From the IMG/VR virus record IMGVR_UViG_3300046488_000208, positions 1,285 through 65,284 of that record: a stretch of DNA of 64,000 nucleotides; one strand, given 5' to 3'. The stretch is from a virus. Lineage: Duplodnaviria; Caudoviricetes. Positions 4,681 through 20,408 of this stretch are shown here, one piece after another (within the stretch, counting starts at the first letter, position 1; the number at the start of each line of letters is the position of its first letter). The translations under genes and the position numbers were made by a program. The notes below the pieces were generated by a model. The model was not told the DNA's origin. It was given only the letters and a program-made list of their open reading frames with translations, and did no database searches.

Positions 4681-6939
4681 ATGAAGAAGTATGTAAAATT
4701 TGATGAAGACTTTAATCTCATAACTCAAGAGATTAATTCCAACACAACTACGGAAGTGGCAAAAAGTATTAATCATTTGATTATTATTGATGTTAGTGGT
4801 TCTATGTCTCATGACCTTCCCGAAATTAGAAAAAATTTAAAAAATAAAATTTCTAATTTAATTAAGGGTGAGGAAGACACAATATCAATTATTTGGTTTT
4901 CGGGTAGAAATGATGCTGGCATTCTGAAAGAGGAAGTTCACGTAAATTCATTAAAACAACTTAATGATTTAAATAATGCCATCGATAAATTTTTAATGCC
5001 AATTGGTTTAACGGCATTTACTAAACCATTAGAACTTGCCAATGATGTAATTGAACGTATCAATAAAAATAATTCAAAGGGATTATTTTCTTTAATTTTT
5101 ATGACAGATGGTTGCTCTAATGATGATGTGTCTTGGAATAGCGTTATAAATGCCGTAAAACAAATATCACCAAAATTATCTGCTTCTCTTGTAGTGGAAT
5201 ATGGATTTTATTGTGACACAAAAAAACTTACACAAATAAGTGAACTTCTTGGGGCAGAAAAAATTGATTGTTCTGGATTTGAAGAATATGACGTTGTAAT
5301 TGCTAAAGGATTTACAAAAAAACTCGGTGGTAGTAAAAAAATCATTGTAGATATTATAGATAATTATCTATATGATTTTGCGTTTTCAATTGATTCTGAC
5401 GGTAGTGTGTTGGTATATAATATTGATAACAACAAAGTAACTGTCAACAATGATGTAAAAGAATTATATTTTTTCTCAACCAAAGAAATTGGTGAAAAAG
5501 CATCAATTACTGATACTGCATTATATGCTGCAATTTATTTACTTTCTGAACGTTTTATGCCTGAAATGGCTGAGAGAGTATTCTATGCTCTGGGCGACAA
5601 TCATTATTACAAAATGCTTGCAAATGCATTTGGTAAACAGAAATTGAACGCATTTAAAACTGCAATCAAAGACTGCGTTGCTGATGCTGCAAAACGTTTT
5701 GTTGATGGAAGGGGTGCTATTCAGAAGGTTGATGACAATGCGTATTGCTTGATGAACTTAATTGAAGAGTTAGGCAATATCGATGGTTGTCTTTTTTATC
5801 CTAATCATCCTGATTTTGTTTACAACAGGATTGGTAGGAAACGTGTTGCAAGGGGCGAAAATCTTAGCGAAGCCGACAAGAAGAGATTATCTGAGGCTAA
5901 AAACGTGGAAGAACTCAACAAAATCACAGAAGAATTGAAGCAGAAGAACGTTGAGGTTAAATTCACCAACACCAATCCAGACAGAGGTTATTCAATGACT
6001 GATTTGGTATGGAATGAAAAACGTGCAAATCTCAGTATTCGTATTCGTATTGAAGGAAAAGCAATACTTCCTGAAAACAAGTTCAAAATCAATGAAGTTG
6101 CTACTTACAAGTACAATACCTTTACTCTTATAAAGGACGGTATTGTTAACGTTGAAAAACTTCCAGTAAGTTATTCAAGCAAACTTGTTGATTTATTGAC
6201 AACGAATTCCGTACCATTTGCAGTAATAAGTGCAGGTGCAGATTTTTCAGCTATAATTGTTGTCGACCTTAATTCTCTGCCTATTATAAACAGAGGTATG
6301 GTTCGTTCACTTTCTGCAAAAGATTTGGCTGTACAGGAATGGGAACTTCTGAAAACCCAGGCAGACAAGAAGGTTTACGATTATTACAGGAAGTCATTAT
6401 TCCCGAAAGAAAGTAAATCATTTGTTGAATTGCTCGGACAGGAAGCTGCAGATTGGCTGAAAACAATCGGTATTACCGACTATAACGGCTTTGCTCCTTT
6501 AACTGATGCCGAAGAATCAACAGACTTCTACATGTCAGTGAATCTTGAAACTAAAATAAAGAGTCTTAGCAGCTTGCCAAAAGTTGAAGACGTTGTTGCC
6601 AAAATAAAAAGCGGTGCAAGTCTGAAACTCAGCGAGTACGTCATGGTAGATGCAATTAAAAAATATCTTGCTGTAACAGAGTCTGAATTGTACAAAACTC
6701 TTTCAGAAGCACAACAGAAAGAAATGCTGAAAACCTATCTGATTACTAAATCCAACGAACTGAATAAAGTAAGAAGGAAAGCATTGCAAGAAATTGCTCA
6801 GATTAAATTCGCTTTGATATTGAGCAAAAAATGGTTCAAGGAATTCAAAACATTCGATGAAAACTCTCTCGAATTAACCCTTGACAAACAACTTCTTAAC
6901 TTTACTTTCGATTTATCAGAAAAAGAAGTTAAAATCTAA
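4681..6939 (+). CDS. vWA domain-containing protein
   Basis: MIDAS motif IIDVSGSMS, LTAF, FMTDG. Confidence 0.75.
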   Translation: MKKYVKFDEDFNLITQEINSNTTTEVAKSINHLIIIDVSGSMSHDLPEIRKNLKNKISNLIKGEEDTISIIWFSGRNDAGILKEEVHVNSLKQLNDLNNAIDKFLMPIGLTAFTKPLELANDVIERINKNNSKGLFSLIFMTDGCSNDDVSWNSVINAVKQISPKLSASLVVEYGFYCDTKKLTQISELLGAEKIDCSGFEEYDVVIAKGFTKKLGGSKKIIVDIIDNYLYDFAFSIDSDGSVLVYNIDNNKVTVNNDVKELYFFSTKEIGEKASITDTALYAAIYLLSERFMPEMAERVFYALGDNHYYKMLANAFGKQKLNAFKTAIKDCVADAAKRFVDGRGAIQKVDDNAYCLMNLIEELGNIDGCLFYPNHPDFVYNRIGRKRVARGENLSEADKKRLSEAKNVEELNKITEELKQKNVEVKFTNTNPDRGYSMTDLVWNEKRANLSIRIRIEGKAILPENKFKINEVATYKYNTFTLIKDGIVNVEKLPVSYSSKLVDLLTTNSVPFAVISAGADFSAIIVVDLNSLPIINRGMVRSLSAKDLAVQEWELLKTQADKKVYDYYRKSLFPKESKSFVELLGQEAADWLKTIGITDYNGFAPLTDAEESTDFYMSVNLETKIKSLSSLPKVEDVVAKIKSGASLKLSEYVMVDAIKKYLAVTESELYKTLSEAQQKEMLKTYLITKSNELNKVRRKALQEIAQIKFALILSKKWFKEFKTFDENSLELTLDKQLLNFTFDLSEKEVKI

Positions 6940-6960
6940 AATTCAGATACTCAAATATTT

Positions 6961-6992
6961 AAGAACCTCAGAAAATTTTCTGAGGTTTTTTT
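6961..6992 (+). terminator. Intrinsic terminator after vWA gene
   Basis: aacctcagaaa/tttctgaggtt hairpin followed by T run. Confidence 0.7.
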
Positions 6993-7013
6993 ATGAAAAT
7001 AATTGAAAAAATG

Positions 7014-7044
7014 TTTGGTGGTATTGAAACTTTATTTAACTTTG
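7014..7044 (+). promoter_or_regulatory. Bacteroidota sigma70-type promoter (-33 TTTG / -7 TAACTTTG) for the tRNA operon leader
   Basis: Matches TAnnTTTG; similar elements before ORFs 549, 4681, 35182, 39962, 53639. Confidence 0.55.
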
Positions 7045-7084
7045 CCAAGTATTTAATAGAAAACGAACTTATAATAAATAAACA

Positions 7085-7216
7085 ATGAAAACGTACAGGC
7101 ACATATCAGCCATTATAACATCGACCTCAAGTCGCAACGGAATTTCTATATTCTGTTCAGACTTTACAGGCAGAAATAATGGAGATGATGGGGGTTCTGG
7201 TTTTCTTATGAGATAA
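7085..7216 (+). CDS. Putative attenuator leader peptide (43 aa) of the tRNA array
   Basis: MKTYRHISAIITSTSSRNGISIFCSDFTGRNNGDDGGSGFLMR*; followed by alternative antiterminator/terminator. Confidence 0.7.
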   Translation: MKTYRHISAIITSTSSRNGISIFCSDFTGRNNGDDGGSGFLMR

Positions 7217-7272
7217 AACTGAAAAGTTTTTAATAAACCAAGAACCCGATTCGCAAGATTCGGGTTTTTTTA
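7192..7272 (+). promoter_or_regulatory. Attenuator: antiterminator (7192-7203 with 7235-7247) versus terminator (7243-7272)
   Basis: gggttctggttt pairs aaaccaagaaccc (12 bp, one bulge); mutually exclusive aacccga..GCAA..tcgggtt plus T tract. Confidence 0.7.
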
Positions 7273-7369
7273 TTCTTTAAAATATAAGTCTTACGGCTTA
7301 TAATCACAACATATAAGGTTTGCACCTTATATAACTCCGTAAGAAGGTCTTTGACATGTTGGAAATTTT

Positions 7370-7440
7370 GCCACCCTGTCCGATTGGTCAGGTATCTGTC
7401 TGCAAAACAGATTAGAAGCGTTCGATTCGCTTGGGTGGCT
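7370..7440 (+). tRNA. tRNA-Cys(GCA)
   Basis: gccaccc/gggtggc acceptor, tctgt-ctGCAaa-acaga, TTCGATT. Confidence 0.9.
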
Positions 7441-7498
7441 CGAAGGTTCAAGTCCTATTTTTTACTCGTTTTTAAAGTATTTATATAAAAATAAAAAA

Positions 7499-8293
7499 AT
7501 GAAATGGAATAATGAATTAGATAATAAATTAAAAAGTTTAATAAACTTAAATAAAGACTATAATGAAATAGCTAAAGAATTTAATGTATCATATAGAACA
7601 CTTACCAATAGAGCATTTAGATTGGGACTTAAAGTTTTAAAACAACACCATGAAATTATTTTATGTAAAAATTGTGGTAAATCCATTAATAAAACATTAA
7701 GTAATGAAAAAAAGTTTTGTAATCAAAGTTGTTCAGCACAATATAATAATAAAAGAAGAAAACATAGTGAAGAAACAAAAAATAAAATTAGACATACAAT
7801 TAAAAGTAAATTTCCCACTAAAATGAAAGAAAATAAAATTGTGAGAAATAAAAAATTAAGAGAAAACAGACCATTAATTTCAATTAGAAAATGTAGATTT
7901 TGTGGTAATGATAAACCAATCTTAAAACATAAAATAATCTGTAGCGATTGTGGTTTTATGTATTATAAGTTTTATCGCCCACTATGTGAGTTTAATATTA
8001 ACGTTAATGATTATCCCGATGAATTTAATTTATCTCTTGTAAAAAAATTGGGATGGTATAGTCCAAGTAATAAAGGTAATAATTTAAATGGTGTTAGTAA
8101 AGACCACATCTATTCAGTATATGATGGATTTAAAAATAATGTTGATTTCAATATATTAAAACATCCTGCAAATTGTAAATTAGTTCAACATATTGATAAT
8201 AATAAAAAGAAATGTCAAAGTTTAATTACATTAGACAAACTTCTATTGAAAATTAAAAAGTGGAATGAAAAATATGTTTCGGTAGTGCAATAA
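7499..8293 (+). CDS. Putative HNH-like homing endonuclease with Cys-rich/NUMOD3-like N-terminus
   Basis: CKNC..FCNQSC, HSEETKNKI, SKDHIYSV..HPANC; stop lies inside tRNA-Asn. Confidence 0.65.
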   Translation: MKWNNELDNKLKSLINLNKDYNEIAKEFNVSYRTLTNRAFRLGLKVLKQHHEIILCKNCGKSINKTLSNEKKFCNQSCSAQYNNKRRKHSEETKNKIRHTIKSKFPTKMKENKIVRNKKLRENRPLISIRKCRFCGNDKPILKHKIICSDCGFMYYKFYRPLCEFNINVNDYPDEFNLSLVKKLGWYSPSNKGNNLNGVSKDHIYSVYDGFKNNVDFNILKHPANCKLVQHIDNNKKKCQSLITLDKLLLKIKKWNEKYVSVVQ

Positions 8294-8351
8294 TGGTTAA
8301 AACGGCTGTCCGTTAAACAGCGAGATGTAAGTTCGACTCTTACCCGAAACG
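8276..8351 (+). tRNA. tRNA-Asn(GTT), C33
   Basis: gtttcgg/ccgaaac, gctgt-ccGTTaa-acagc. Confidence 0.8.
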
Positions 8352-8479
8352 CAATAATGTAAAATATGCTTTACAAAAACCCACCAAAATGTAAAATGTA
8401 TTTAACGTTATAATGTATGAAATAACCATCATTAAGTCCAAAAAAGGGGGTTAATGCATGATAAAACATACATTAACAC

Positions 8480-8553
8480 TGTCTCGTAGCTCAGTTGGTA
8501 AGAGCACTTCTCTGATAAGGAAGGGGTCGGGGGTCCAAGTCCCTTCGAGACAA
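8480..8553 (+). tRNA. tRNA-Ile(GAT)
   Basis: tgtctcg/cgagaca, cttct-ctGATaa-ggaag. Confidence 0.85.
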
Positions 8554-8616
8554 CACAGACAGACAGTTAGAATTTCATAGCACCCTTTTTTGGTGGGATA
8601 TCATAGAAATTCAAAT

Positions 8617-8700
8617 GGAGAAATGGGTGAGTGGCTATAAACCATCAGTCCTGAAAACTGACAAGGGCAACCTTCGGGGGTTCGAATCCCTCTTTCTCCG
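8617..8700 (+). tRNA. tRNA-Ser(TGA), C33
   Basis: ggagaaa/tttctcc G73, tcagt-ccTGAaa-actga, long variable arm. Confidence 0.9.
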
Positions 8701-8770
8701 CAAAGCATTTGGTGTTAAGTACCCATCAACATTTGGCTTATAATTATCTAAGGGTTAAAAGGGTATATTT

Positions 8771-8857
8771 GGAGAATTGACAGAGTGGTTATTGTAACAG
8801 TCTGCTAAACTGTGGGCGGGGAAACCTGCTCCGTAGGTTCGAATCCTACATTCTCCG
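8771..8857 (+). tRNA. tRNA-Ser(GCT)
   Basis: ggagaat/attctcc, ctGCTaa loop, long variable arm. Confidence 0.9.
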
Positions 8858-8932
8858 CAAAATTAATTGAAATGGAATAAATCAGTTAATTCATGCATCA
8901 AAATGATTTTCATGGAGTCATTTAGGTGTAAA

Positions 8933-9085
8933 AGTTCTGGGTTGCATAAGAAGCTGCCCTAATGTTCAGTAGGAAGTTCTGTACTCGCATTTGGCAATGT
9001 GAATAGTACATTATAGACTCCGAGACATATTAAAGATAGTTGCAATGCTGTCGGGAAACGTAAGTATAAGGCTTACACCAGAACT
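8933..9085 (+). ncRNA. Unidentified structured RNA (~150 nt) in tRNA array
   Basis: Ends pair (agttctgg/ccagaact); internal hairpins; no ORF. Confidence 0.4.
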
Positions 9086-9089
9086 AAAC

Positions 9090-9161
9090 GGATTGGTAAC
9101 TCAGTGGTAGAGTGTCTGTCTGAAGAGCAGAAAGTCGGGGGTTCAAATCCCTCCCATTCCA
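9090..9161 (+). tRNA. tRNA-Phe(GAA)
   Basis: tctgt-ctGAAga-gcaga, TTCAAAT; one acceptor mismatch. Confidence 0.85.
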
Positions 9162-9264
9162 CGCAAAAAGTTCGTACTATACAAAGTGGAAGTACAAAAT
9201 TTTATAGGTCGGGTTGCAGGTGGCGCAATTCGGGTAACTTCCTCACAAGGAATCCTGTAAATAT

Positions 9265-9337
9265 GGAGATTTAGCAGAGATGGTCTATGCGTGTGCCTGA
9301 AGAGCATGAGAAACGGGTTCGAGTCCAGTAATCTCCA
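9265..9337 (+). tRNA. tRNA-Phe(GAA), second divergent copy
   Basis: ggagatt/aatctcc, tgtgc-ctGAAga-gcatg. Confidence 0.85.
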
Positions 9338-9425
9338 CAACTACATTCTAAACAGGGTGTTCACCCTATGGGTCGCCAGATTGAAAATGACCCCATGTGA
9401 GAGCATGTAAAAATCTGGCAAAAAC

Positions 9426-9498
9426 GCAGAAGTAACTCAATTGGTAGAGCGTCAGCCTTCCAAGCTGAAAGTTGCGGGTTCGAGTCCCGTTTTCTGCT
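9426..9498 (+). tRNA. tRNA-Gly(TCC)
   Basis: gcagaag/tttctgc U73, tcagc-ctTCCaa-gctga. Confidence 0.92.
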
Positions 9499-9632
9499 CA
9501 AAGTCCCATCCTGCTGTGGGTGTGCAAGGTCAGTTAATCTATCCTGACTGTTCTCCGGAATCCCTTTGATGCACATGGGACACTTTTTTAAATCGGGGAA
9601 GATACACTGTTTTATCGCAGTGCCCCGTCCAT

Positions 9633-9704
9633 GCGAAGTGTAGCTTAATTGGTAAAGCGTCTGTCCACCAAACAGAGGAAGCGGTTCGAATCCGACATTT
9701 CGCA
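9633..9704 (+). tRNA. Non-canonical tRNA, anticodon ACC (Gly?)
   Basis: 8-bp acceptor gcgaagtg/catttcgc, 3-bp T stem, tctgt-ccACCaa-acaga. Confidence 0.65.
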
Positions 9705-9759
9705 CAAAATAATACTTGCAAAAGCAAAATTTTTCATATATTTATTGAAAATTTTTATT

Positions 9760-9966
9760 ATGAAAATGAAATATGTTTTATTGGAGTATGATTACACAAC
9801 TTACTGTCAGGGAACAGCAGACCATAATAGTGGAATGATGTTAGTTCATTGTCCGAAAGATGCAACTTTTATTGAAGTTCGGGCAGCATTAATGAATCTC
9901 AGACACGTTAAAGGTGAATACGAAATTGATATAAAAAGTGTAAGTAATGCAACAATTGAATGGTAA
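9760..9966 (+). CDS. Hypothetical protein
   Basis: ORF trimmed to ATG after the tRNA. Confidence 0.55.
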   Translation: MKMKYVLLEYDYTTYCQGTADHNSGMMLVHCPKDATFIEVRAALMNLRHVKGEYEIDIKSVSNATIEW

Positions 9967-9969
9967 TAT

Positions 9970-10043
9970 AGCGATGTAGTCTCAATGGTTAGAGCAGGAC
10001 TCTTATAAAGTCAAGGTTGTGGGTTCAAGTCCCACCTTCGCTA
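9970..10043 (+). tRNA. tRNA-Ile(TAT)
   Basis: agcgatg/cttcgct, gact-ctTATaa-agtc, TTCAAGT. Confidence 0.85.
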
Positions 10044-10197
10044 CGTATGAAACACAGTGCTCATAGTACGAAACTGTTATAAAGGAGTAGTTAAACCGAA
10101 ATTCAGAAGAAAATCGGCTGTGTTTCAAACTTTTTAAAAGTTCTTTGAGTGATTAACCGATTTTGTTAATCCATGTATTTATGTTAAAAATAAATAT

Positions 10198-10530
10198 ATG
10201 GAAAAAATTTGTAAGAAACATGGTTTGACAGAATATGTCATTCGTATTGATGGACGTTCAAGATGTAAAAAATGTGCTGTTGATGCTGTTCAAAAAAGAA
10301 GACATGTATTAAAAGAAAAAGCAGTTGCATACAAAGGTGGAAAATGTGTAAAGTGTGGATATAATAAATATGTTGGAGCACTTGAATTTCACCATACTAA
10401 TGGGGATAAAGAATTTGGTATTGGTGCAAAAGGTTATACAAGAAGTTGGGAAAAAGTAAAAGAAGAATTAGATAAATGTATATTAGTATGTTCAAATTGT
10501 CATAAAGAAATTGAAGGAAATATAATTTAA
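10198..10530 (+). CDS. HNH endonuclease
   Basis: GGKCVKCGY..ALEFHH..ELDKCILVCSNCHKE. Confidence 0.8.
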   Translation: MEKICKKHGLTEYVIRIDGRSRCKKCAVDAVQKRRHVLKEKAVAYKGGKCVKCGYNKYVGALEFHHTNGDKEFGIGAKGYTRSWEKVKEELDKCILVCSNCHKEIEGNII

Positions 10531-10531
10531 T

Positions 10532-10604
10532 GCCTCAGTAGCTCAGTGGTAGTAGCGGTGGTCTGTTAAACCAAAGGTCGTAAGTTCAATCCTTACCTGG
10601 GGCG
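10532..10604 (+). tRNA. tRNA-Asn(GTT), second copy
   Basis: gcctcag/ctggggc G73, ctGTTaa loop. Confidence 0.88.
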
Positions 10605-10703
10605 CAACAAATTGGTAATATGAACGATAGCATTGATTTTGCACAATAGCACGAACAATGCTACCATTCAAAAGTGATGATAACATATTAAATATCAATA
10701 ACT

Positions 10704-10979
10704 ATGAAAAAAAAACCATTTTTACCTATGTCATGTAAAGGAGTAAAATGCATGATAGTTGGTTGCAGAGAACTTGCTTCTCATAAAGTTGGTGAAGAAA
10801 ATATTTGGTGTAGAGATGAAGGTATTGGAAATGACGAGTATTTAAAACATCAACAGTTTGATGAATCACATAATGCAACAACTTATTTATGTGAAGAACA
10901 TTTTAAATTTGTTATGAAAAGAGAAACTGAATATAATACTATTGAAGATAATCGATTTGAAGGTCGATTAATAAAATGA
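10704..10979 (+). CDS. Cys-rich hypothetical protein, paralog of 18092..18352
   Basis: Shared CKGVKCM..GC..LASHK.GEENIW...TTYLC..MxRETEYNTI. Confidence 0.7.
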   Translation: MKKKPFLPMSCKGVKCMIVGCRELASHKVGEENIWCRDEGIGNDEYLKHQQFDESHNATTYLCEEHFKFVMKRETEYNTIEDNRFEGRLIK

Positions 10980-11263
10980 AAATTGATTATTTAACACCTG
11001 TTTATGTTGATAAGATTGAAAAGCCACTAGAAGAAGGCAAATGTTATATTTCAAAAGAATTTGGCATTGCAATTCACTTATGTGCTTGCGGATGTGGGGA
11101 AGAAACAGTAATGGATTTAAAACCTAATTGGAAAGATGGATGGAATTTAATTGAAAATATTGATGGTACAATATCATTTACTCCATCAATTGGTAATTGG
11201 TCCGGTCAAAACCCGTATCATGCACATTATTTTATTACAAATAATAAAATAATTTGGTTATGA
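10976..11263 (+). CDS. DUF6527-like protein
   Basis: AIHLCACGCGE...SFTPSIGNW...HAHYFI. Confidence 0.7.
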   Translation: MKIDYLTPVYVDKIEKPLEEGKCYISKEFGIAIHLCACGCGEETVMDLKPNWKDGWNLIENIDGTISFTPSIGNWSGQNPYHAHYFITNNKIIWL

Positions 11264-11271
11264 AAATAAAT

Positions 11272-11344
11272 GCCGAAATAACTCAATTGGTAGAGTATCT
11301 GATTCGTATTCAGAATGTTGCAGGTTCGATTCCTGCTTTTGGCT
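11272..11344 (+). tRNA. tRNA-Thr(CGT)
   Basis: gccgaaa/ttttggc, tctga-ttCGTat-tcaga. Confidence 0.88.
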
Positions 11345-11362
11345 CAAAATTTTGATATAATA

Positions 11363-11578
11363 ATGGAAAGATTTCATATATTTGAATGGAACAAATGGGA
11401 TAAAGAATATTCCATGATTATCCTTTCAGAAGAAGATATTAAAAATGAAATTAATTTAAGGGGTGCAGGTTTTGAAATACTTGTTATTCCCAATAAATTT
11501 GAAAATACATCAAATGAATATCTCGATTTTTGGAAAAAAATAACTTTAATGAGAAGTGGAAGAATAATATACATATAA
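11363..11578 (+). CDS. Hypothetical protein
   Basis: ORF between tRNAs, trimmed to ATG. Confidence 0.5.
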   Translation: MERFHIFEWNKWDKEYSMIILSEEDIKNEINLRGAGFEILVIPNKFENTSNEYLDFWKKITLMRSGRIIYI

Positions 11579-11582
11579 TAAT

Positions 11583-11667
11583 GCCGATATCCTATAGTGG
11601 TCGATTAGGCTAGTTTTGTAAACTAGATGCTAATAACTCACCGGGGGTTCGAATCCCTCTATCGGCT
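11583..11667 (+). tRNA. tRNA-Thr(TGT) with 16-nt variable region
   Basis: gccgata/tatcggc, ctagt-ttTGTaa-actag. Confidence 0.8.
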
Positions 11668-11682
11668 CAAATTCAAATAGTT

Positions 11683-11901
11683 ATGGAAAGTTTGCCCAGT
11701 GAAAATCACGAAGAACGTTTCTTGAAGAAATTACAATCAAGATTTAAAGAGTATGTTGATTTAACTCCGTACTTCATAAAAGTTGCAATTGTCACAATAA
11801 TTGTTTTCCTTTGTTCGATATTTATTTGGTACAGTTTTCTTCGTATAGATAAAAACAAGCCAGTAATTGAAAACATTGTTGACCAATTTAAAAAGAAATA
11901 A
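11683..11901 (+). CDS. Small membrane protein
   Basis: One hydrophobic segment. Confidence 0.5.
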   Translation: MESLPSENHEERFLKKLQSRFKEYVDLTPYFIKVAIVTIIVFLCSIFIWYSFLRIDKNKPVIENIVDQFKKK

Positions 11902-11905
11902 ACCT

Positions 11906-11977
11906 GCCTCCATAGTTCAACGGATAGAACGGATGCCTTCTAAGCAACAAATTGGGGTTCGATTCCCCGTGGGGGTA
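11906..11977 (+). tRNA. tRNA-Arg(TCT)
   Basis: gcctcca/tgggggt, ctTCTaa loop. Confidence 0.88.
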
Positions 11978-12094
11978 CAAATAAAATTAAAATATGTTTC
12001 CTTATTTTTCTGAAATGGCAAAACAACAACGAAAAGATGAATTGAAATTCGCTTTGGTGTTGTTAATATTAGCAGTTATTGCAACTGCACTTAT

Positions 12095-12119
12095 GCTCTT
12101 ATAGTTTAATGGATAGAAT
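12095..12119 (+). pseudogene. tRNA relic (5' acceptor strand and D arm only)
   Basis: gctcttatagtttaatggatagaat resembles the 5' end of the Arg tRNAs, then breaks off before the HNH gene. Confidence 0.55.
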
Positions 12120-12185
12120 TAAATACATTATTTTTTATGTCTATACGATTTTTATAAATAATGAAGTATTTATGATAAAAATACC

Positions 12186-12803
12186 ATGAATACTTATAAT
12201 GAAAAAGAACTTGAAAAGTTAATAATTTACGAAAATAAAAGTTATTCAGAAATTGGAAAAATATTTGGTGTTACTGGTGGTGCAATAAAAAAAGCAGCAC
12301 TAAGATTTGGAATTTCATTACCGAGAAGACGTGATATTAATCCCAATGAAACATTTAATAAGGGGAAAGCATTTATTGAATATAAAAGGGGTATATGTAA
12401 AAATTGTTGTGTTGAAATTATCATGTATCCTGAAAGAGATAGTGAATTTTGCTCCAATAAATGTCATTGCGAATATGAATATCGACAATATATTGAAAGA
12501 TGGAAAAATGGTAAAGAAAGCGGAATCATCGGGAAATTTTCAATGTCAAATCACATAAAAAAATATTTCTTTGAAAAATTTAATAATAAATGTCAAAAGT
12601 GTGGCTGGGGAGAAAAAAATGAACACAGTAATAAAATTCCACTTCAACATCATCATGTTGATGGAAATTCATTAAATAATAAAGAAGAAAATATTGAACT
12701 TTTATGTCCAAACTGTCATTCATTAACAAAAAATTTTGGAAGTAGAAATAAAAATGCAACTAATGGAAGGTCCGAATATTTTGGAAGAAAAAAGCACAAG
12801 TAA
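12186..12803 (+). CDS. HNH homing endonuclease with N-terminal HTH
   Basis: KCQKCGW...LQHHHVDGNSLNNKEENIELLCPNCHS. Confidence 0.85.
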   Translation: MNTYNEKELEKLIIYENKSYSEIGKIFGVTGGAIKKAALRFGISLPRRRDINPNETFNKGKAFIEYKRGICKNCCVEIIMYPERDSEFCSNKCHCEYEYRQYIERWKNGKESGIIGKFSMSNHIKKYFFEKFNNKCQKCGWGEKNEHSNKIPLQHHHVDGNSLNNKEENIELLCPNCHSLTKNFGSRNKNATNGRSEYFGRKKHK

Positions 12804-12883
12804 AACGTAATTGGATGACCGTCCCAGTTTCCTAAACTGGTATCACTAATGTGATATGTGGGTTCGAGTCCCACCTCTGTGCA
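12794..12883 (+). tRNA. tRNA-Arg(CCT) with long variable arm
   Basis: ccagt-ttCCTaa-actgg; variable stem tatcac/gtgata; bulged acceptor; overlaps HNH stop. Confidence 0.75.
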
Positions 12884-12898
12884 CTAAAAACAATTGAT

Positions 12899-13141
12899 AT
12901 GGCAACAGCGATTTGTCCTAAATGTGGAAAAGTAATTTATGCACCTGACAGTTCAGTGCAATTGGAAAAAGATTTTGTCTTGTGTTGTGACGAAGTAATA
13001 TACATACCAACAAATCAAGATTATGACATTTTCTTTAATGAATTATTAAATCCTTCTGAACCCAATGAAGCATTGAAAAAAGCTGTATCACGTTATAAAA
13101 AACGAACTAATGAAATTCACGATAGAGAAACTCAAGAATAA
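12899..13141 (+). CDS. Hypothetical Zn-ribbon protein
   Basis: CPKCG; trimmed to ATG. Confidence 0.5.
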   Translation: MATAICPKCGKVIYAPDSSVQLEKDFVLCCDEVIYIPTNQDYDIFFNELLNPSEPNEALKKAVSRYKKRTNEIHDRETQE

Positions 13142-13316
13142 ACTTGAATATACTGATGGAAAGACTTTTGTTTCACAAACCGGATATGCATTTATAGATG
13201 AAAGTGGCTGTTGTATAATAATTGTTTACGGTGAAGGTCGCAGAGACGGAATGTCTAAGTATTTAACAGAAGACGGTGACGTACTGCACATAAAATATAG
13301 AATAATGCCTTTGTAG
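13110..13316 (+). CDS. Hypothetical protein
   Basis: ORF track. Confidence 0.45.
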   Translation: MKFTIEKLKNKLEYTDGKTFVSQTGYAFIDESGCCIIIVYGEGRRDGMSKYLTEDGDVLHIKYRIMPL

Positions 13317-13381
13317 CATAACGGATAATGCGCTTGTCTTCGAAACAAGGTCTTATGGGGGTTCGAGTCCCTCCAGGGGTA
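13307..13381 (+). tRNA. tRNA-Arg(TCG)
   Basis: gcctttg/caggggt, cttgt-ctTCGaa-acaag. Confidence 0.88.
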
Positions 13382-13435
13382 CAAAAAACCTTAAGTATTA
13401 GGGTTTATAGTATAATAAAAAGTAATGTGAAAACA

Positions 13436-13714
13436 ATGGAATTAATACCTATATTTGTTGATACTATTCCAATTGAAATTGAAGAAGGAAAAGTATTTAT
13501 TACAAAAAAATATTGTGTTGCAGTACATCTTTGTGCGTGTGGTTGTGGTGAAAAAACAGTTATGAACTTTAAACCCAATTGGAAAGACGGTTGGACATTA
13601 ATTGAAAATCCCGATGGTACGGTTTCATTTTCTCCGTCAATTGGTAATTTCACTGGTCAAGACCCATATCATGCACATTATTTTATAGTGAATAACAAAA
13701 TAGTTTGGTGTTAA
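13436..13714 (+). CDS. DUF6527-like protein, paralog of 10976..11263
   Basis: AVHLCACGCGE..KPNWKDGW..SFSPSIGN..YHAHYF. Confidence 0.7.
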   Translation: MELIPIFVDTIPIEIEEGKVFITKKYCVAVHLCACGCGEKTVMNFKPNWKDGWTLIENPDGTVSFSPSIGNFTGQDPYHAHYFIVNNKIVWC

Positions 13715-13857
13715 AAATAAAATGAAATGAAAAAACTGATTGATTATTTTACGTGTCGTCCGACAAGGCAAGCATTGCTATTTGGATTGACGATTCTTTT
13801 TGGTGAAATCATATTTTTTATTTTATTATGTACCGGAACTATTGTGGTACAATAAAT

Positions 13858-13932
13858 GCACCCGTAGCATAATTGGATTAGTGCATTGGTCTACGAAACC
13901 AAAGGTTGTGAGTTCGAATCTCACCGGGTGTA
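13858..13932 (+). tRNA. tRNA-Arg(ACG)
   Basis: gcacccg/cgggtgt, ttggt-ctACGaa-accaa. Confidence 0.92.
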
Positions 13933-13974
13933 CAAAACAAAACTCAAACGTATTTATATTAAAGGTTTGAAACG

Positions 13975-14649
13975 ATGATTGAATATAACGAAAATGAATT
14001 ACGTCAAATTGTAGCGGAATGTAATACGTATAGGGATGTTTTACATAAATTTGAAAGAAATGAATCAGGTGCATCATATAAGACACTACATAGACGTTTA
14101 AATGAATGGAAGATTGATACTTCACATTTTTTAAACAGAAGTGAGTTAATGATAGCAAATCAAGGAATTTATTCGAGAAAAAGCAATGAAGAAATTTTTA
14201 GTATAAATGATGTTGGAAGAAAAACGATAAAAGACAGAATAATTGCTGAAAATTTAATTGAATATAAATGTAAGTTTTGTGGTCAAGATGAAAATTGGCA
14301 TGGTAAAAAAATTTCATTAATTCTTGACCATATAAATGGTGTTAACAATGATAATCATCTGGAAAATTTGAGGTTCTTATGTCCAAATTGTAATGCAACA
14401 CTGGAAACACATTGTAAAGGAGCATCCGCATTATCACCGAAACCAATTAAAGTAAAAAAGATAAGAATAAGTCCACCAAGATTAAGTCAAAGAAAAGTTA
14501 AAGAGCGACCATCATTGGATGAACTAAACGGAATGTTAAAAACAATGTCATATCGTGCAATCGGTAAAAAATATAATGTTAGTGACACTGCAATTAGAAG
14601 GTGGATAAATTTATATCATAAAACAAATATATTGGATAAAATAATTTAA
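13975..14649 (+). CDS. HNH homing endonuclease with C-terminal HTH
   Basis: LILDHINGVNNDNHLENLRFLCPNC; SYRAIGKKYNVSDTAIRRW. Confidence 0.85.
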   Translation: MIEYNENELRQIVAECNTYRDVLHKFERNESGASYKTLHRRLNEWKIDTSHFLNRSELMIANQGIYSRKSNEEIFSINDVGRKTIKDRIIAENLIEYKCKFCGQDENWHGKKISLILDHINGVNNDNHLENLRFLCPNCNATLETHCKGASALSPKPIKVKKIRISPPRLSQRKVKERPSLDELNGMLKTMSYRAIGKKYNVSDTAIRRWINLYHKTNILDKII

Positions 14650-14713
14650 AATGATAATTATGAAGTATCTCAACACATCGTAAATCAATCCTGCTATTGA
14701 TTATGCGATTGGT

Positions 14714-14962
14714 ATGTTATTTAGACAAACAAAAAAGCAGGAACAGCCAGAACTCGTGAAAGACGATGCATTCTACAGAAAGCATCCGAAAATTATGAGA
14801 CTTTGGCTTGTGGAAATCACGTCTACGGATGGTGAAATCCAAAAGTTTTACGTTAGCGGTATGACAAAATTTGATGCCTATGAAAAGGCTGATGGTTACA
14901 GGTACTGGACTGCAGACGTTGGACTTAAAAATAAGTTGAGTACTTTTAGGCTTATGCCTTAA
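14714..14962 (+). CDS. Hypothetical protein
   Basis: ORF track. Confidence 0.55.
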   Translation: MLFRQTKKQEQPELVKDDAFYRKHPKIMRLWLVEITSTDGEIQKFYVSGMTKFDAYEKADGYRYWTADVGLKNKLSTFRLMP

Positions 14963-14993
14963 AGAAAAATTGCAGGGGAAGACCCTGCAACAT

Positions 14994-15067
14994 GCACCGG
15001 TAGTTTAACTGGAAAGAATTGCCCCGTCTCAGGGGTACGATATGTGGTTCGAATCCCATTCGGTGTG
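14994..15067 (+). tRNA. Irregular tRNA, Asp(GTC) or Glu(CTC) ambiguous
   Basis: gcaccgg/tcggtgt G73; anticodon region tgcccc-gtctca-ggggta (6- or 8-nt loop); bulged T stem. Confidence 0.55.
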
Positions 15068-15077
15068 CAATAACATC

Positions 15078-15148
15078 GCAGGTGTAGCATAGGGGTAGTG
15101 CATTGGCTTGCCGAGCCGAGGACGAGGGTTCGATTCCCTTCACCTGCT
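15078..15148 (+). tRNA. tRNA-Gly(GCC)
   Basis: gcaggtg/cacctgc U73, ttGCCga loop. Confidence 0.9.
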
Positions 15149-15206
15149 CTACTAAGTTCGAAAATCTTTTTTCGCATTTCATAGTATTTATATTAAAGTA
15201 AATATT

Positions 15207-15884
15207 ATGAAATGGAATAAAGAGGACGTTGAAAAAGCAATTGCACTTCATAAGGAAGGAAAGGGATTTCAAGAAATTGCCAATGTATTAGGTAGAAATT
15301 TTAGGTGTGTTCAGATAAAATTAAATAAACTTGGGTATCACCAAAATTATGCTGAGACCAAAGAAACCAAAGCGTGTCTTAACTGCAGTAATGTATTCAC
15401 ATCGTTAATAAGTAAAAACAGAAGATTTTGTTCACAGTCATGCGGTGCAGAATATAACAATAGAAAATACCCCAAACGAGCCAACATAAACAAACTGAAA
15501 AATTGTTTACATTGCGGTCAGCCATTAAATTCACGTCAAACAAAATTTTGTTCCCCCAAATGTAGTGGCGAATATTTTCAACAAGAAAATTTTAAGAAAA
15601 TTGAAAATGGGAATGTGTTATTTCCCGCTACCATGTATAAAAAGTACCTCATACATAAGCACGGTAACAAGTGTATGAAGTGTGGCTGGAATGAAGTAAA
15701 TCCGACTACGGGTTTAGTGCCAATTCAACTGGAGCATAAGGACGGTAATTCTGAGAATCATAACTTAAATAATTTGGAATTGTTGTGTCCCAATCATCAT
15801 TCATTGACTCCAACATTTGGTGCACTGAACAAAGGCAATGGTAGAACCAAGAGAAGAGAAAAAAGAAAATCTCTTGCATATTAA
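15207..15884 (+). CDS. HNH homing endonuclease
   Basis: KCMKCGW...IQLEHKDGNSENHNLNNLELLCPNHHS. Confidence 0.85.
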   Translation: MKWNKEDVEKAIALHKEGKGFQEIANVLGRNFRCVQIKLNKLGYHQNYAETKETKACLNCSNVFTSLISKNRRFCSQSCGAEYNNRKYPKRANINKLKNCLHCGQPLNSRQTKFCSPKCSGEYFQQENFKKIENGNVLFPATMYKKYLIHKHGNKCMKCGWNEVNPTTGLVPIQLEHKDGNSENHNLNNLELLCPNHHSLTPTFGALNKGNGRTKRREKRKSLAY

Positions 15885-15922
15885 GGAATTTAGTGCGATA
15901 TTTACAACAAAATTTATAAATC

Positions 15923-16201
15923 ATGAAAAGCAAAAAATCTTTTAAAGGAAAACTAATTAAATTAGTTGTTGAAAATTTATGTGAAACAGAATTTATGTGG
16001 ATTTCACAAACAACATTGCAAGAATATCTCGATAAACATCTGGCATTTAAAACAGAGGTTGTGAATTTCACGTTAAATGAGTATCAAGTTGGAAAAGATG
16101 CCGAAATAAAATTCATTGACGAAGACAATAAACCTCGTGTGATTGACCTTCATATTGCACAAATTCAAAGGTCAGTAAATGAACTCGTAAAAATACAATA
16201 A
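15923..16201 (+). CDS. Hypothetical protein
   Basis: ORF track. Confidence 0.55.
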   Translation: MKSKKSFKGKLIKLVVENLCETEFMWISQTTLQEYLDKHLAFKTEVVNFTLNEYQVGKDAEIKFIDEDNKPRVIDLHIAQIQRSVNELVKIQ

Positions 16202-16205
16202 AACA

Positions 16206-16646
16206 ATGAAAGAATCTATTCAAACATCAATAAATGCTCTCGACAAACAAATGAGTATTCTTGGAGCAGCAAAAGAACAGACCGACAACGATAACTCCAA
16301 ACGATTGTTATCAATTGCCATAACAAATATCCAAACAGCAAAACTTTATCTCAAAGAAGCAAAAGACTTGGGATATACTGAATTTATTTTGGAATCCCCT
16401 AAAGGATGTGAAGATAATACATCGGGTGAAGCACCATTGGATGAAAAAATAATAAAATTTCCAATACCTACATTTGAGGAAGTACAAGAAAAAATTGTAA
16501 AATCTTTAAGTAATACGAATTGGATAACAAGATATTCGGCAATTAGGATGATTGACTATGTTATATTACCCACACTTGGTAGTGAAGCAGATGTTAAATT
16601 TTGGAATGGAATTTCTGATTTATTAAAACAACAAGAGAAATCATAA
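16206..16646 (+). CDS. Hypothetical protein
   Basis: ORF track. Confidence 0.6.
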   Translation: MKESIQTSINALDKQMSILGAAKEQTDNDNSKRLLSIAITNIQTAKLYLKEAKDLGYTEFILESPKGCEDNTSGEAPLDEKIIKFPIPTFEEVQEKIVKSLSNTNWITRYSAIRMIDYVILPTLGSEADVKFWNGISDLLKQQEKS

Positions 16647-16736
16647 TGTGATGAACATGGCATAGACCTACCCCCATCACAATCTCGCCAGAATCTCGAC
16701 AATCTGGCGAAATCCGGACAATAATCCGGACAACAG

Positions 16737-17040
16737 TAAAAAATAACACCGAGGATTCATCGCTATCCGGACACTAATCAGGACATTTTGTCCAGATAAA
16801 TGTCCGGATAGAGGAAGTTCAGAACACCTTTGCTAAATGCGGAAGATTAGGTTGAGAAATGAAGCATCAGAGTACCAACTGTTTAAAATCGTTACTACCG
16901 CAGAGATTAGAAGCACTACTTGTAGTGTGGGGTGCAAGCCATACAGACTTAGAGGGAAAGCAACTCTGTGATAGTCGGGTTGGTGCTTAGATAAATGATG
17001 ATTAACAACAGAATTCTGGCTACGCTCATGTTATTTTTTA
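16737..17040 (+). ncRNA. rnpB: RNase P RNA
   Basis: P1 taaaaaataaca..gag/ctc.tgttatttttta; P3 atccggaca/tgtccggat; GAGGAAGTTCAG, GGTGCAAG, AGATAAATGAT and ACAGAATTCTGGCTAC resemble the conserved RNase P core. Confidence 0.8.
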
Positions 17041-17047
17041 CTTTTAC

Positions 17048-17076
17048 TGTAACATTTTCAGAAATTTTACGTATAA
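17048..17076 (+). promoter_or_regulatory. ECF-type promoter TGTAAC-N16-CGTATAA before rplL
   Basis: Same motif at 19322, 27187, 30757, 38417(-), 57281(-) and 13 copies in 58-64 kb. Confidence 0.7.
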
Positions 17077-17102
17077 TTGCATAATAATTAATAATAGAAA
17101 TA

Positions 17103-17480
17103 ATGGCAACAAATCCAAAATTATTCGCAATTGCTGACACATTGACAAAATTGACGGTGTTAGAAGCAAAACAACTCATTGATATTCTTGAAAATGATTA
17201 TGGCATCAAGGGTCAGAGCATTGTAACTCCGATTGGTGTACCAACACCCGAAGTTGCAGTAAAAGAACAGACTGAATTTGATGTTTATCTGAAAGAAATT
17301 GGTGGACAAAAATTACATGTCATCAAAAAAGTTAATGAATGCTTGAGATTGGGACTCAAAGAATCAAAAGAACTGGTCGATAAATGTCCGGGTCTTCTGA
17401 CAGGAAAAGTATCAAAAACCGATGCATTGATACTTAAAACCGAACTGGAAAATGTGGGTGCAGTAGTTGAAATAAAATAA
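17103..17480 (+). CDS. rplL: Ribosomal protein bL12 (L7/L12)
   Basis: LTVLEA.QL..ILE..YGI; EQTEFDV.L...GGQKL.VIK.V....LGLKESKELV; LE.VGAVVEIK. Confidence 0.92.
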   Translation: MATNPKLFAIADTLTKLTVLEAKQLIDILENDYGIKGQSIVTPIGVPTPEVAVKEQTEFDVYLKEIGGQKLHVIKKVNECLRLGLKESKELVDKCPGLLTGKVSKTDALILKTELENVGAVVEIK

Positions 17481-17482
17481 TT

Positions 17483-17788
17483 ATGAAAGGAATCATAAAA
17501 TATCAACAAAAGTTGTATAAAAAGGCAAGTGACCCTCACAAAGTTAAAAAGGGCGACTTGATTAAACTTGAATGTAAGAGAGGTAGTGATTACTTTCAAT
17601 ACAATGGTATTTATACAGTTATCAGCGATTCCAGAGAGATTCACATTAAAAATTATAAGGGAGAAGGTTTAACATTATGCTTGAAACTTGGATATAACGT
17701 ATTTTATGATGATTATTTCAGATTAGTTGAAACCAAAAGAAAGAAGTCATTACCAAACGTTTTAAAAGAAGAACAATATGAAAACTGA
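17483..17788 (+). CDS. Hypothetical protein
   Basis: ORF track. Confidence 0.55.
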   Translation: MKGIIKYQQKLYKKASDPHKVKKGDLIKLECKRGSDYFQYNGIYTVISDSREIHIKNYKGEGLTLCLKLGYNVFYDDYFRLVETKRKKSLPNVLKEEQYEN

Positions 17789-18095
17789 ATTGTGGAAAAT
17801 ATTGGTTCCAGCTTCCGGCAACAATGACAAGGAGTTCACTTATGAGCATCATAAGGCATGGGATGCATTTGTCAAAGACCTTACAGGTGGAGTAACCGTC
17901 ATGAAGACTGCCAAAGGTCAGTGGGTAAGTCCACACGGTCAGTTATATGTTGACAGAATGATTCCTTGTAGAATTATCTGTACCAAAGAGCAAATCAATA
18001 AAATTGTTGATTTTACTTTAGTGCATTATGACCAAGAAGCAATTCTTGCATATAAAATTAGTAGTGTAGTAATTTTAAAACATAAAAAGCAATGA
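17778..18095 (+). CDS. Conserved phage hypothetical protein
   Basis: HHKAWD..V...TGG.T....AKGQW.SP.G....MIPCRI. Confidence 0.6.
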   Translation: MKTELWKILVPASGNNDKEFTYEHHKAWDAFVKDLTGGVTVMKTAKGQWVSPHGQLYVDRMIPCRIICTKEQINKIVDFTLVHYDQEAILAYKISSVVILKHKKQ

Positions 18096-18352
18096 GCAAT
18101 ACAATTAAACCCAAATTGCCGTTAACATGTAAAGGAGTAAAATGCATGAAAGTTGGTTGCCAAAATCTTGCTTCACATAAAATAGGCGAAGAAAATATTT
18201 GGGACAAAGAACTTCAATCAGAAGAGCATCAAGCATTTGAAAACAGTCATAATTTAACAACATATTTATGTGATAATTGCTTTAATCAAATAATGACAAG
18301 AGAAACTGAATATAATACAATTAAAGACGACAGATATGGGAATGTTCGGTGA
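18092..18352 (+). CDS. Cys-rich hypothetical protein, paralog of 10704..10979
   Basis: Direct sequence similarity. Confidence 0.65.
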   Translation: MSNTIKPKLPLTCKGVKCMKVGCQNLASHKIGEENIWDKELQSEEHQAFENSHNLTTYLCDNCFNQIMTRETEYNTIKDDRYGNVR

Positions 18353-18554
18353 AATAAATGCAGAAGCCAATGCCAAGCAATTGGAAGGCATAATTCTTGA
18401 CCTTATAAAAGGTGACCGTTGGAGAGACTGCAGAAGTGCAGCCAGAGGCGTTGCCAAAGAAAAATTATATCCTTGGTATCTCAGTGAATGCTCAGAAGCG
18501 TTTATTGAAGCAAATCCCGAAATAAAAAAAGAATTTGGAGAATTGAAATCATGA
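18336..18554 (+). CDS. Hypothetical protein
   Basis: ORF track, coupled overlaps. Confidence 0.5.
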   Translation: MGMFGEINAEANAKQLEGIILDLIKGDRWRDCRSAARGVAKEKLYPWYLSECSEAFIEANPEIKKEFGELKS

Positions 18555-18715
18555 AAACAAAACTGGATATCGGAAATTTGCTTCAATTAGCAGAAGAATT
18601 AGTGTATGATGGCAGAATTGAATTTGCAGAAGAAGCCGTAATTCCTGTTCAAATGTTAGAAACAGAGGAAGGCGAAAAATATCAATTGAAATTAGTAATG
18701 ACTTTAATATAGCAA

Positions 18716-18804
18716 GGAGAGGTGCTTGAGTGGTCGAAAAGGGCAACCTGCTAAGTTGTTGGGCGACTAAAATTGCCCCGTAGGTTCGAATCCTATCCTC
18801 TCCG
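18716..18804 (+). tRNA. tRNA-Ser(GCT), second copy
   Basis: ggagagg/cctctcc G73, gcaac-ctGCTaa-gttgt, long variable arm. Confidence 0.9.
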
Positions 18805-18869
18805 CAAACAAATCATGAGTTGAGTCAACCCTTTCTTAAATATTAAAGTATTTATAATAAAATATTGTT

Positions 18870-19289
18870 ATGAATACTAATGAAAAGGGAGATATCGGTT
18901 TGGCTGCTGTGATTGCAGATGTTGTCAGAAAAGGATTTTTTGTGTTTTTGCCGTTCTCAGATAGAACACATGTCGATTTGATTATCGCAGATAAGAATAT
19001 GAAAATTCAAAGGGTACAGATTAAATATATTACCGTAAATAAAACAGGTGTATTACAAATCGTAACATCAAGTGTTGTAAACGGTAAAAAAGTACCTGTT
19101 GACCTATCTAAGACAGATATTTGGGCAATTTATTGTCCCAATACCGATAAAATATATTATGTCACAACACTTGAATTATTGGGTAAAAGGGCAATGAGTT
19201 TAAGAGTTAGTGAGACAAAACTAAGTCAACCCGGAATACATCTTGCTGACAATTATTTAGATTTAAGCAAAGTGTGGCACATATTATAG
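18870..19289 (+). CDS. PD-(D/E)XK endonuclease (group I intron-associated type), free-standing
   Basis: KGDIG.A.V....G..VF.P......DLI......RVQIK; DIWAIYCP. Confidence 0.75.
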   Translation: MNTNEKGDIGLAAVIADVVRKGFFVFLPFSDRTHVDLIIADKNMKIQRVQIKYITVNKTGVLQIVTSSVVNGKKVPVDLSKTDIWAIYCPNTDKIYYVTTLELLGKRAMSLRVSETKLSQPGIHLADNYLDLSKVWHIL

Positions 19290-20404: not shown

Positions 20405-20408
20405 ATAC

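Follow-up and report, generated by a model that had tools for sequence, protein, structure and literature searches.

The stretch of phage DNA considered here (the window: 64 kb out of the 65.3-kb virus contig of IMG/VR record IMGVR_UViG_3300046488_000208, Caudoviricetes) carries a long tRNA array at 7370-20481, and between this array and the upstream gene for a 752-amino-acid vWA-domain protein (4681-6939) lies a short leader unit at 7014-7271 which, judging from its sequence and from that of its relatives, is probably a ribosome-mediated (leader-peptide) transcription attenuator gating the Cys/Asn/Ile/Ser/Phe/Gly/Thr/Arg tRNAs that follow it. All parts of the unit are on the + strand. It opens with a promoter block recognised by motif, position and conservation (7014-7044; TTTG at 7014-7017 and TAACTTTG at 7037-7044), which we take to be of the Bacteroidota -33/-7 type, and which is kept directly 5' of the leader open reading frame (ORF) in relatives; part of it coincides with a weaker instance of the phage motif TTGNAAC-N-GTAT, at 7024-7054. 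The leader ORF, identified by ORF calling and conservation, consists of 43 codons followed by a TAA stop (7085-7216), and its codons 7-33 (7103-7183, delimited from the codon alignment) form a roster of codons matched to the array, including a conserved Ser-Arg-Asn-Gly-x-x-Ile-Phe-Cys-Ser run and Gly-Arg-Asn. Within codons 36-40 lies the putative antiterminator 5' strand (7192-7203), assigned from duplex energy, folding and co-variation; its partner at 7235-7247, in which A7241 is bulged, overlaps at 7240-7247 the 5' arm of an intrinsic terminator at 7240-7271 (hairpin 7240-7269 with a GNRA-type loop, seven T at 7265-7271, -14.7 kcal/mol), whose position is conserved across all relatives. Promoter, ORF, antiterminator and terminator were thus found where an earlier, sequence-only reading of this DNA had placed them. 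On its upstream side the unit is isolated from incoming transcription by the intrinsic terminator of the vWA gene (6964-6992, +), a hairpin with a T run (-14.1 kcal/mol in the terminator scan) that has an equivalent in every relative whose upstream region was compared. A simple promoter/terminator scan listed neither 6964-6992 nor 7240-7271, and both were accepted from folding.

The first gene of the array is a tRNA-Cys at 7370, and ARAGORN lists 19 tRNAs in total (Cys, two Asn, Ile-GAT, Ile-TAT, three Ser, two Phe, three Gly, two Thr, three Arg and a tRNA-CUA) where Rfam gives 20 matches. The codon content of the leader is closely aligned with this set. The composition given in the sequence-only reading is exact: Thr4, Arg4, Ile5, Ser7, Asn3, Gly6, Phe3, Cys1 and Asp3 make up 36 of the 43 codons, Glu, Gln, Val, Pro and Trp are absent, and Lys and Leu occur once each. 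The enrichment that it implied also holds against the proteome, with 33 of the 42 residues after Met1 belonging to the eight amino acids of the array (17.4 expected, p 1.1e-6), and at the level of codons 30 of 42 are readable by array anticodons (16.3 expected, p 1.9e-5). As to the sampling of individual anticodons, 14 of the 16 distinct ones are represented in the leader, Arg-TCG being unsampled as had been stated; a weak Glu-like CTC is unsampled too, which had not been foreseen. On the other hand, the tRNA-Arg(CCT) said to match the AGG codon was found by neither ARAGORN nor Rfam, so that AGG would be readable only by wobble with Arg-TCT. The "Asp/Glu-like" tRNA does exist as an Rfam-only match (14994-15067, 31.8 bits), but its anticodon loop is read as CUC (Glu) and not as Asp, leaving the three Asp codons of the leader without a cognate array tRNA. 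This Glu-type gene (+) stands directly before tRNA-Gly(GCC) and is an oddity in an array otherwise devoid of acidic isotypes.

The folding of the leader RNA supplies the second element of an attenuator, namely a choice between two structures. The strands 7192-7203 and 7235-7247 form 12 Watson-Crick pairs around the single bulged A, and since positions 7240-7247 belong to both the antiterminator and the terminator, the two structures are mutually exclusive. When the nascent RNA is folded up to 7256 the antiterminator is part of the minimum-energy fold; in the full leader the terminator fold is preferred (-52.3 kcal/mol versus -47.5 kcal/mol with the antiterminator enforced), and when the end of the ORF is blocked, as it would be by a ribosome standing on the stop, the terminator alone forms. 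The duplex between ORF end and terminator arm has an energy of -18.6 kcal/mol compared with -11.3 +/- 2.7 in shuffled sequences. Because the 5' antiterminator strand ends 10 nt ahead of the stop codon, a ribosome at the stop would cover it, and one stalled further upstream would leave it free. This is the trp/his-type geometry that the sequence-only reading had described, with the antiterminator 5' strand at the ORF end and an overlap with the terminator arm of 8 nt; the proposed fold of 7150-7280 stands in so far as the alternative helices are present, while the folding energy of the region as a whole is ordinary (z -1.32; 19/200 shuffles as good). Two further pairings were noted. A stem of 7145-7157 with 7169-7180 inside the roster (7145-7180, +) is predicted by RNAalifold from eight leaders; its 12 pairs are mostly invariant, with double changes at two pairs only, and do not prove the structure, which may act as a pause hairpin for RNA polymerase or as a segment-1-like element. 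In addition, the start region AUGAAAAC (7085-7092) is complementary to a conserved GUUUUCAU (~7199-7209) just 3' of the antiterminator strand in most leaders of the D type, imperfectly so in the window; these segments are nearly invariant, which makes co-variation uninformative, and their pairing might hide the start codon once the leader RNA has been terminated. Taken by itself, the evidence from the window leaves an attenuator plausible but open.

Comparison with relatives strengthens the case. Relatives of the vWA gene are found on IMG/VR contigs, the complete ones being jumbo phages of 327-365 kb, and wherever the same array was reached in a relative it is preceded by the promoter block, an ORF of 39-45 codons and a terminator directly before the first tRNA, which is Thr-GGT or Cys. 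A strict pattern built on the peptide core returned 19 matches on 18 IMG/VR contigs, 17 of which are intact ORFs followed by a terminator, the other two being a truncated copy and a match that extends past the end of its locus; at the 14 loci where the stored DNA reaches a downstream tRNA, the first tRNA is always Thr or Cys. In some relatives insertions of 0.8-7.7 kb follow the vWA gene and the leader still adjoins the array; as judged from these loci, the leader travels with the array and is not tied to the upstream gene. The core common to these leaders (Ser-Arg-Asn-Gly-x-x-Ile-Phe-Cys-Ser ... Gly-Arg-Asn) consists of array amino acids exclusively, and conservation extends to the codons themselves (TCG, AGT, CGC/CGT, GGA/GGG, ATA, TTC, TGT, TCA, GGC, AGA), among which TCG, CGC and GGG are seldom used in the proteome (6%, 4% and 3% of the codons of their own amino acid). 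Two variants of this leader were observed in passing: one locus (L059, - strand) carries a truncated D-type duplicate about 0.9 kb 5' of the complete leader (ORFs 1098-1190 and 1976-2113 of the reversed locus), and a contig of DNA run X20, one of two DNA runs compared with 5000-9500, covers 7069-7377 with a strain variant of the leader with eight substitutions plus an indel immediately 5' of the start codon, the Ala codon 7109-7111 being replaced by a Thr codon.

The end of the ORF and the terminator arm have also changed together. A MAFFT alignment of the 3' parts places the CCCG cores out of register, and column-wise pair counts were for this reason not used; they were replaced by duplex energies of cognate versus permuted partners and by an anchored pair table. 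Over 30 leaders, the energy of the cognate pairing between ORF end and terminator arm is reached by at most one of 300 shuffles in 23, the exceptions being the window itself (3), two Lys/Tyr leaders (4 and 9) and four of the five leaders of the Asp/Glu/Val class (7, 16, 31 and 58). The mean cognate energy is -17.55 kcal/mol, compared with -12.88 when partners are permuted among all leaders and -15.06 when they are permuted within classes, and in neither test did any of 5000 permutations reach the cognate mean. In the anchored table every pair is a standard one by construction, and the information lies solely in how widely the pair types vary and how many sequences pair; at the variable 5'-arm positions +3, +4 and +5 of 23 D-type leaders, three to five types of pair are seen with each partner, the 3' arm and the ORF strand. 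Among the Pro/His/Gln leaders, all three strands have changed in concert at one position, at the cost of replacing an Arg codon by Trp, which indicates that the C-terminal part of the peptide is dictated by the RNA. By this comparison of sequences, each ORF has a 3' end that co-varies with the 5' arm of the terminator behind it.

The observation that carries most weight is that this arrangement is repeated. The sequence-only reading had proposed as a test that other tRNA arrays be inspected for leaders matching their own tRNA sets, and the outcome is in its favour: in five complete relatives (G001-G005, four arrays each) all 20 arrays are preceded by a promoter, a short ORF and a terminator. 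The four arrays of G001 lie on one strand and fall into four classes, Pro/His/Gln, Asp/Glu/Val/Leu/Ala/Trp, Lys/Tyr, and Thr/Cys/Asn/Ile/Ser/Phe/Gly/Arg, the last being that of the window. The four types of leader bear no sequence relation to one another, and each is spelled in the amino acids of its own array: that of the Pro/His/Gln array contains QPQHQP-type runs, that of the Asp/Glu/Val/Leu/Ala/Trp array is rich in L, V, A, D and E and has a single W, and that of the Lys/Tyr array has a YYYGKKSYKK-type run in which both Lys and both Tyr codons are used. The share of own-class residues is 36%, 69%, 32% and 81% (classes in the order listed above) against 8.7%, 32.6%, 15.1% and 41.5% in the proteome. 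The corresponding chi-square is 578 with 9 degrees of freedom, a value inflated by relatedness within classes; as the sequences of a class are related, the independent observations are the four classes and not the 30 leaders. When all 375 small ORFs of a 60-kb stretch of G001 were ranked blind, the leaders came 1st, 1st, 2nd and 12th for their own class, and the Pro/His/Gln leader of G004 was located as the top-scoring small ORF. Across the 30 leaders own-class residues account for 71% of positions before the antiterminator strand and for 28% within and after it. Within classes, tracking how leader and array differ between genomes yielded two single-genome coincidences only, a Leu codon in a Lys/Tyr leader (L006) beside a Leu-CAG tRNA and an ATG replacing ATA in the leader of G005 beside a tRNA with a CAT anticodon; these are anecdotes and were not counted as evidence.

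These results bear on whether the ORF matters at all, or whether the region is an untranslated structured RNA, for example a tRNA- or protein-binding riboswitch of T-box-like kind, in which the ORF is incidental. High nucleotide conservation and the conserved stems predicted by RNAalifold speak for such an RNA; yet start codon, frame and stop are conserved (all 10 homologous leaders stay in frame, their indels being multiples of three), and the composition signal resides at the level of amino acids and codons in four non-homologous leaders. Furthermore, no Rfam family, T-box included, reached its threshold: with a permissive search of 6800-7500 only tRNA scored above the gathering cut-off, the T-box covariance model gave no match up to an E-value of 10 in the same region, and the sole match among the amino-acid operon leaders was His_leader at 17.9 bits (threshold 49), located at 6913-6994 and thus off the ORF. 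The structured-RNA explanation is accordingly given very little credence.

Conversely, it could be the peptide that matters, the short ORFs encoding small functional peptides that end in an ordinary gene-end terminator, with the tRNAs transcribed from other promoters or by constitutive leak. Four unrelated peptides would then each need to match the amino acids of the array that follows, and their C-terminal residues change in such a way as to keep the RNA pairing; the leader peptide has, moreover, no Pfam match. The distance between terminator and array is also relevant here, given that in all five Lys/Tyr arrays the first tRNA begins 11-15 nt past the terminator, and in the Pro/His/Gln array of G001 about 6 nt past it, which leaves no room for a promoter and implies that these tRNAs are reached only via read-through. 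On the side of a functional peptide stand the conservation of the core, the longer spacer of the window, where 98 nt containing a promoter-like match separate the terminator from tRNA-Cys, and a conserved box (TCTTTGACATGTTGG... / TCTTTGACATGYTGG...; 7345-7366, +) just before the first tRNA, which recurs ahead of the D and B arrays of relatives (e.g. L001 ~12620-12650 and L036 ~1545-1565) and thus in two of the four classes. The spacing of this box does not match the TTTG/TAnnTTTG promoter pattern, and it may mark a processing site or be another kind of element. Overall, a role for the peptide itself is regarded as highly improbable. The window spacer is also occupied by nested inverted repeats (7287-7352, +) that are specific to the window, the closest relatives lacking them and having a spacer of 20-45 nt or one that contains tRNA-Thr(GGT). 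In G001, two copies of one terminator bracket the Lys/Tyr array (G001:C1:264742 and 265856; L038, L040), the first belonging to the attenuator and the second following the last tRNA, so that promoter, leader, six tRNAs and closing terminator form a compact unit.

Under the attenuator reading, the phage would probably make the tRNAs of the array only when ribosomes read the leader codons slowly. Starting from the conserved promoter block, RNA polymerase would be followed closely by a ribosome translating the 43-codon ORF. With fast decoding, the ribosome would arrive at the last codons or the stop and cover 7192-7203, leaving 7235-7247 unpartnered; the terminator at 7240-7271 could then form and transcription would stop before tRNA-Cys. 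If a cognate aminoacyl-tRNA were scarce, the ribosome would be delayed anywhere within the roster (7103-7183), 7192-7203 would pair with the emerging 7235-7247, no terminator would form and polymerase would enter the array. The ORF would in this way act as a race track on which decoding delays are summed over many codons, and because the products of the array are tRNAs that read the codons of the roster, the arrangement would amount to a negative-feedback control of supply. Translation of the ORF, ribosome-polymerase coupling in a host that probably belongs to the Bacteroidota, the direction in which the system responds, its trigger and the link to anticodon-nuclease defence are what we infer from this layout; possible natural triggers include the codon demand of the phage, host shut-off, starvation and tRNA-cleaving defence.

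What exactly is sensed can be read in two ways. The attenuator may be real and yet general, reporting translation capacity, ribosome-polymerase coupling or amino-acid starvation, in which case the codon match would be a by-product of grouping tRNAs by amino acid. In trp/his attenuation a stalled ribosome cannot distinguish a missing tRNA from an uncharged one, the naked nascent RNA of the window leader folds into the antiterminator, so that any delay or an outright failure of translation should give read-through, and Arg-TCG goes unsampled. However, a general sensor would have no need for four leaders that partition the amino acids exactly as the arrays do, nor for the retention, at the level of codons, of both codons of two-codon families and of several Ser, Arg, Gly and Leu boxes; it is therefore considered improbable. 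At the other extreme, the four parallel attenuators, which split nearly the whole genetic code, may constitute an isoacceptor-resolved "tRNA-stat" in which each leader assays decoding at one codon of nearly every tRNA species of its own array, and in which any depletion, for instance by a host anticodon nuclease or by the phage's own shut-off of the host, switches on that array only. This stronger version of the attenuator hypothesis is offered tentatively and may well not hold.

Several observations weigh against the attenuator reading and are gathered here. With respect to composition, 12 of the 42 leader codons, including the three Asp, are unreadable by array tRNAs; by the fraction of array-type residues alone the leader ORF ranks only 7th among 404 small ORFs in the window, since AT-rich antisense frames are also rich in F, I, S, N and T; and it is the homologue of the window leader that came 12th of 375 in G001. 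The conservation of particular codons could reflect RNA structure rather than the sampling of isoacceptors. As regards structure, three of the five leaders of the Asp/Glu/Val class pair no better than shuffles at the 5% level (the values of 16, 31 and 58 per 300 given above), and five array-type codons lie within the antiterminator strand, where a stall would favour termination. Coupling of ribosome and polymerase is not an established feature of the presumed host phylum. The remaining points concern transcription. The host-type promoter proposed in the sequence-only reading is supported by its position and by its conservation in relatives, but not by the frequency of its motif, as TTTG-N17-23-TAnnTTTG occurs nine times in the window versus 6.7 +/- 2.2 times in shuffled sequences, 19 of 100 shuffles reaching nine. 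A sigma-70 consensus scan gave 95 promoter-like matches in the window, a modest excess over the 68.5 of shuffles; one of them, at 7276-7304, is that within the 98-nt spacer, and the phage of the window may thus have a bypass promoter. Finally, contigs of metatranscriptome run X24 compared with 5000-9500 yielded two 151-nt pieces in the vWA gene and short tRNA-like pieces of 90-99% likeness, for which other organisms are a possible source; 6963-8472 is uncovered by RNA contigs, a result that speaks neither for nor against the attenuator.

In relatives, the promoter block of the tRNA leaders contains both the TTGTAAC-type motif and the TTTG/TAnnTTTG pattern, which suggests a dual early and late transcription of the leaders. 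Elsewhere in the window the motif TTGTAAC-N16-17-ACGTATAA, followed by a shared TGTAACCAAAAC leader, precedes many genes (27186, 58918, 60011, 60913, 62255 and 63896 on the + strand; 38447 on the - strand), and a gene at 57462-58031 encodes an ECF-like member of the sigma-70 family that has only regions 2 and 4. The pattern TTTG...TAnnTTTG precedes several early-type genes of the window and a Shine-Dalgarno-like motif is present in only 2 of its 57 long ORFs, features that, measured against known consensus sequences, probably fit a Bacteroidota host. No cultured relative was found: a nucleotide search of INPHARED returned two short tRNA matches only, and in a protein search with the helicase the only matches were to remotely related jumbo phages of Vibrio, Burkholderia and Rhizobium, with 29-40% identity over part of the protein.

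Among the other features of the region, the array contains, 3' of the attenuator, a homologue of ribosomal protein L7/L12 (17103-17480, +; Pfam E 4.7e-21), and it is interspersed with treble-clef/HNH endonuclease-like genes (7499-8293, 12186-12803, 13975-14649, 15207-15884 and 22243-23037, all +), called mostly from weak Pfam matches, which are probably homing endonucleases and would account for the variable spacing of the array between relatives. The terminator scan lists no further terminator-like hairpin on the + strand from 7267 to 23518. The last tRNA of the array has a CUA anticodon (20409-20481, +; amber suppressor type); the idea of TAG recoding to which it gives rise was rejected, as reading TAG as sense lengthens ORFs of the window less than does the control in which TGA is read as sense. 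A 31-codon ORF at 6993-7088, which overlaps the leader start through an ATGA, was likewise rejected as an upstream gene coupled to the leader: it shares sequence with the promoter block, its ATG is missing in the closest relative and in others compared, and it has no Pfam match. Two IS605 OrfB/TnpB-type genes with HTH, OrfB_IS605 and Cas12f1-like TNB domains are located at 40768-42051 and 54853-56028 (+).

The proposed element has clear parallels among known systems. Leader-peptide attenuators of enterobacteria include multivalent examples, namely thr (Thr and Ile) and ilvGMEDA (Ile, Leu and Val), in addition to trp, his, leu and pheA; they share with the phage unit a promoter, a short ORF enriched in the codons concerned, an antiterminator 5' strand at the end of this ORF and an overlapping intrinsic terminator, and the multivalent ones also share the sensing of more than one amino acid by a single leader. 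In contrast to these, the genes under control here would be those of tRNAs (plus the endonuclease-like genes and the L7/L12 homologue) instead of biosynthetic enzymes, the roster covers eight amino acids and several isoacceptor boxes instead of runs of one to three, four parallel leaders split nearly all amino acids, and the carrier is a phage; as possible counterparts of segment 1:2 of the trp leader there are the near-invariant predicted stem in the roster and the pairing of the start region with the ORF end. All leader-peptide attenuators known to us control genes of amino-acid biosynthesis or aminoacylation. The latter is exemplified by the pheST attenuator, in which a Phe-codon leader controls phenylalanyl-tRNA synthetase: here, too, a gene of the translation apparatus is attenuated through a leader peptide and slow decoding raises decoding capacity, the differences being that a synthetase is controlled, a single amino acid is sensed and the gene belongs to the host. 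T-box elements likewise use a choice between terminator and antiterminator to report the state of a specific tRNA and to control translation-supply genes, but they bind uncharged tRNA directly and need no ORF, whereas in the phage a conserved ORF carries the specificity.

With regard to the regulation of tRNA arrays, the closest published case found is the trn operon of Anabaena, a long array induced under translational stress (PMC8421152, PMC10272220). This operon resembles the phage units in being an accessory tRNA array, normally silent, that is turned on when translation is impaired, and differs from them in being controlled at the promoter via direct repeats and the repressor TrcR, with no leader ORF and no specificity for individual amino acids; the words "attenuat" and "leader" are absent from the text of PMC8421152. 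The role of phage tRNAs themselves has been debated for decades, two of the positions being compensation for codon usage and replacement of tRNAs cleaved by host defences (PMC10264068, eLife 2023; PMC11555353, Nat Commun 2024). A search of the literature outside subscription journals found no leader-peptide attenuator before tRNA genes and nothing on how the expression of phage tRNA genes is controlled. The best reading of the sequences is that textbook attenuation applied to tRNA genes, with a multi-amino-acid roster, in four parallel units and in a phage, is a new combination.

If this reading is correct, the attenuation known from trp and his would extend to RNA genes and to viruses. An attenuator before each array would imply that the phage produces tRNAs on demand and, in turn, that particular aminoacyl-tRNAs recurrently fall short during infection, and sets of co-regulated tRNAs would be readable directly from sequence. 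The hypothesis that phage tRNAs answer tRNA depletion would become a simple reporter experiment, for which these leaders, as natural multi-codon sensors of decoding speed, might themselves serve as reporters. Should the more specific "tRNA-stat" version prove true, tRNA-targeting immunity would be sensed by an element encoded in cis, and viral tRNA genes would have their first known regulatory logic.

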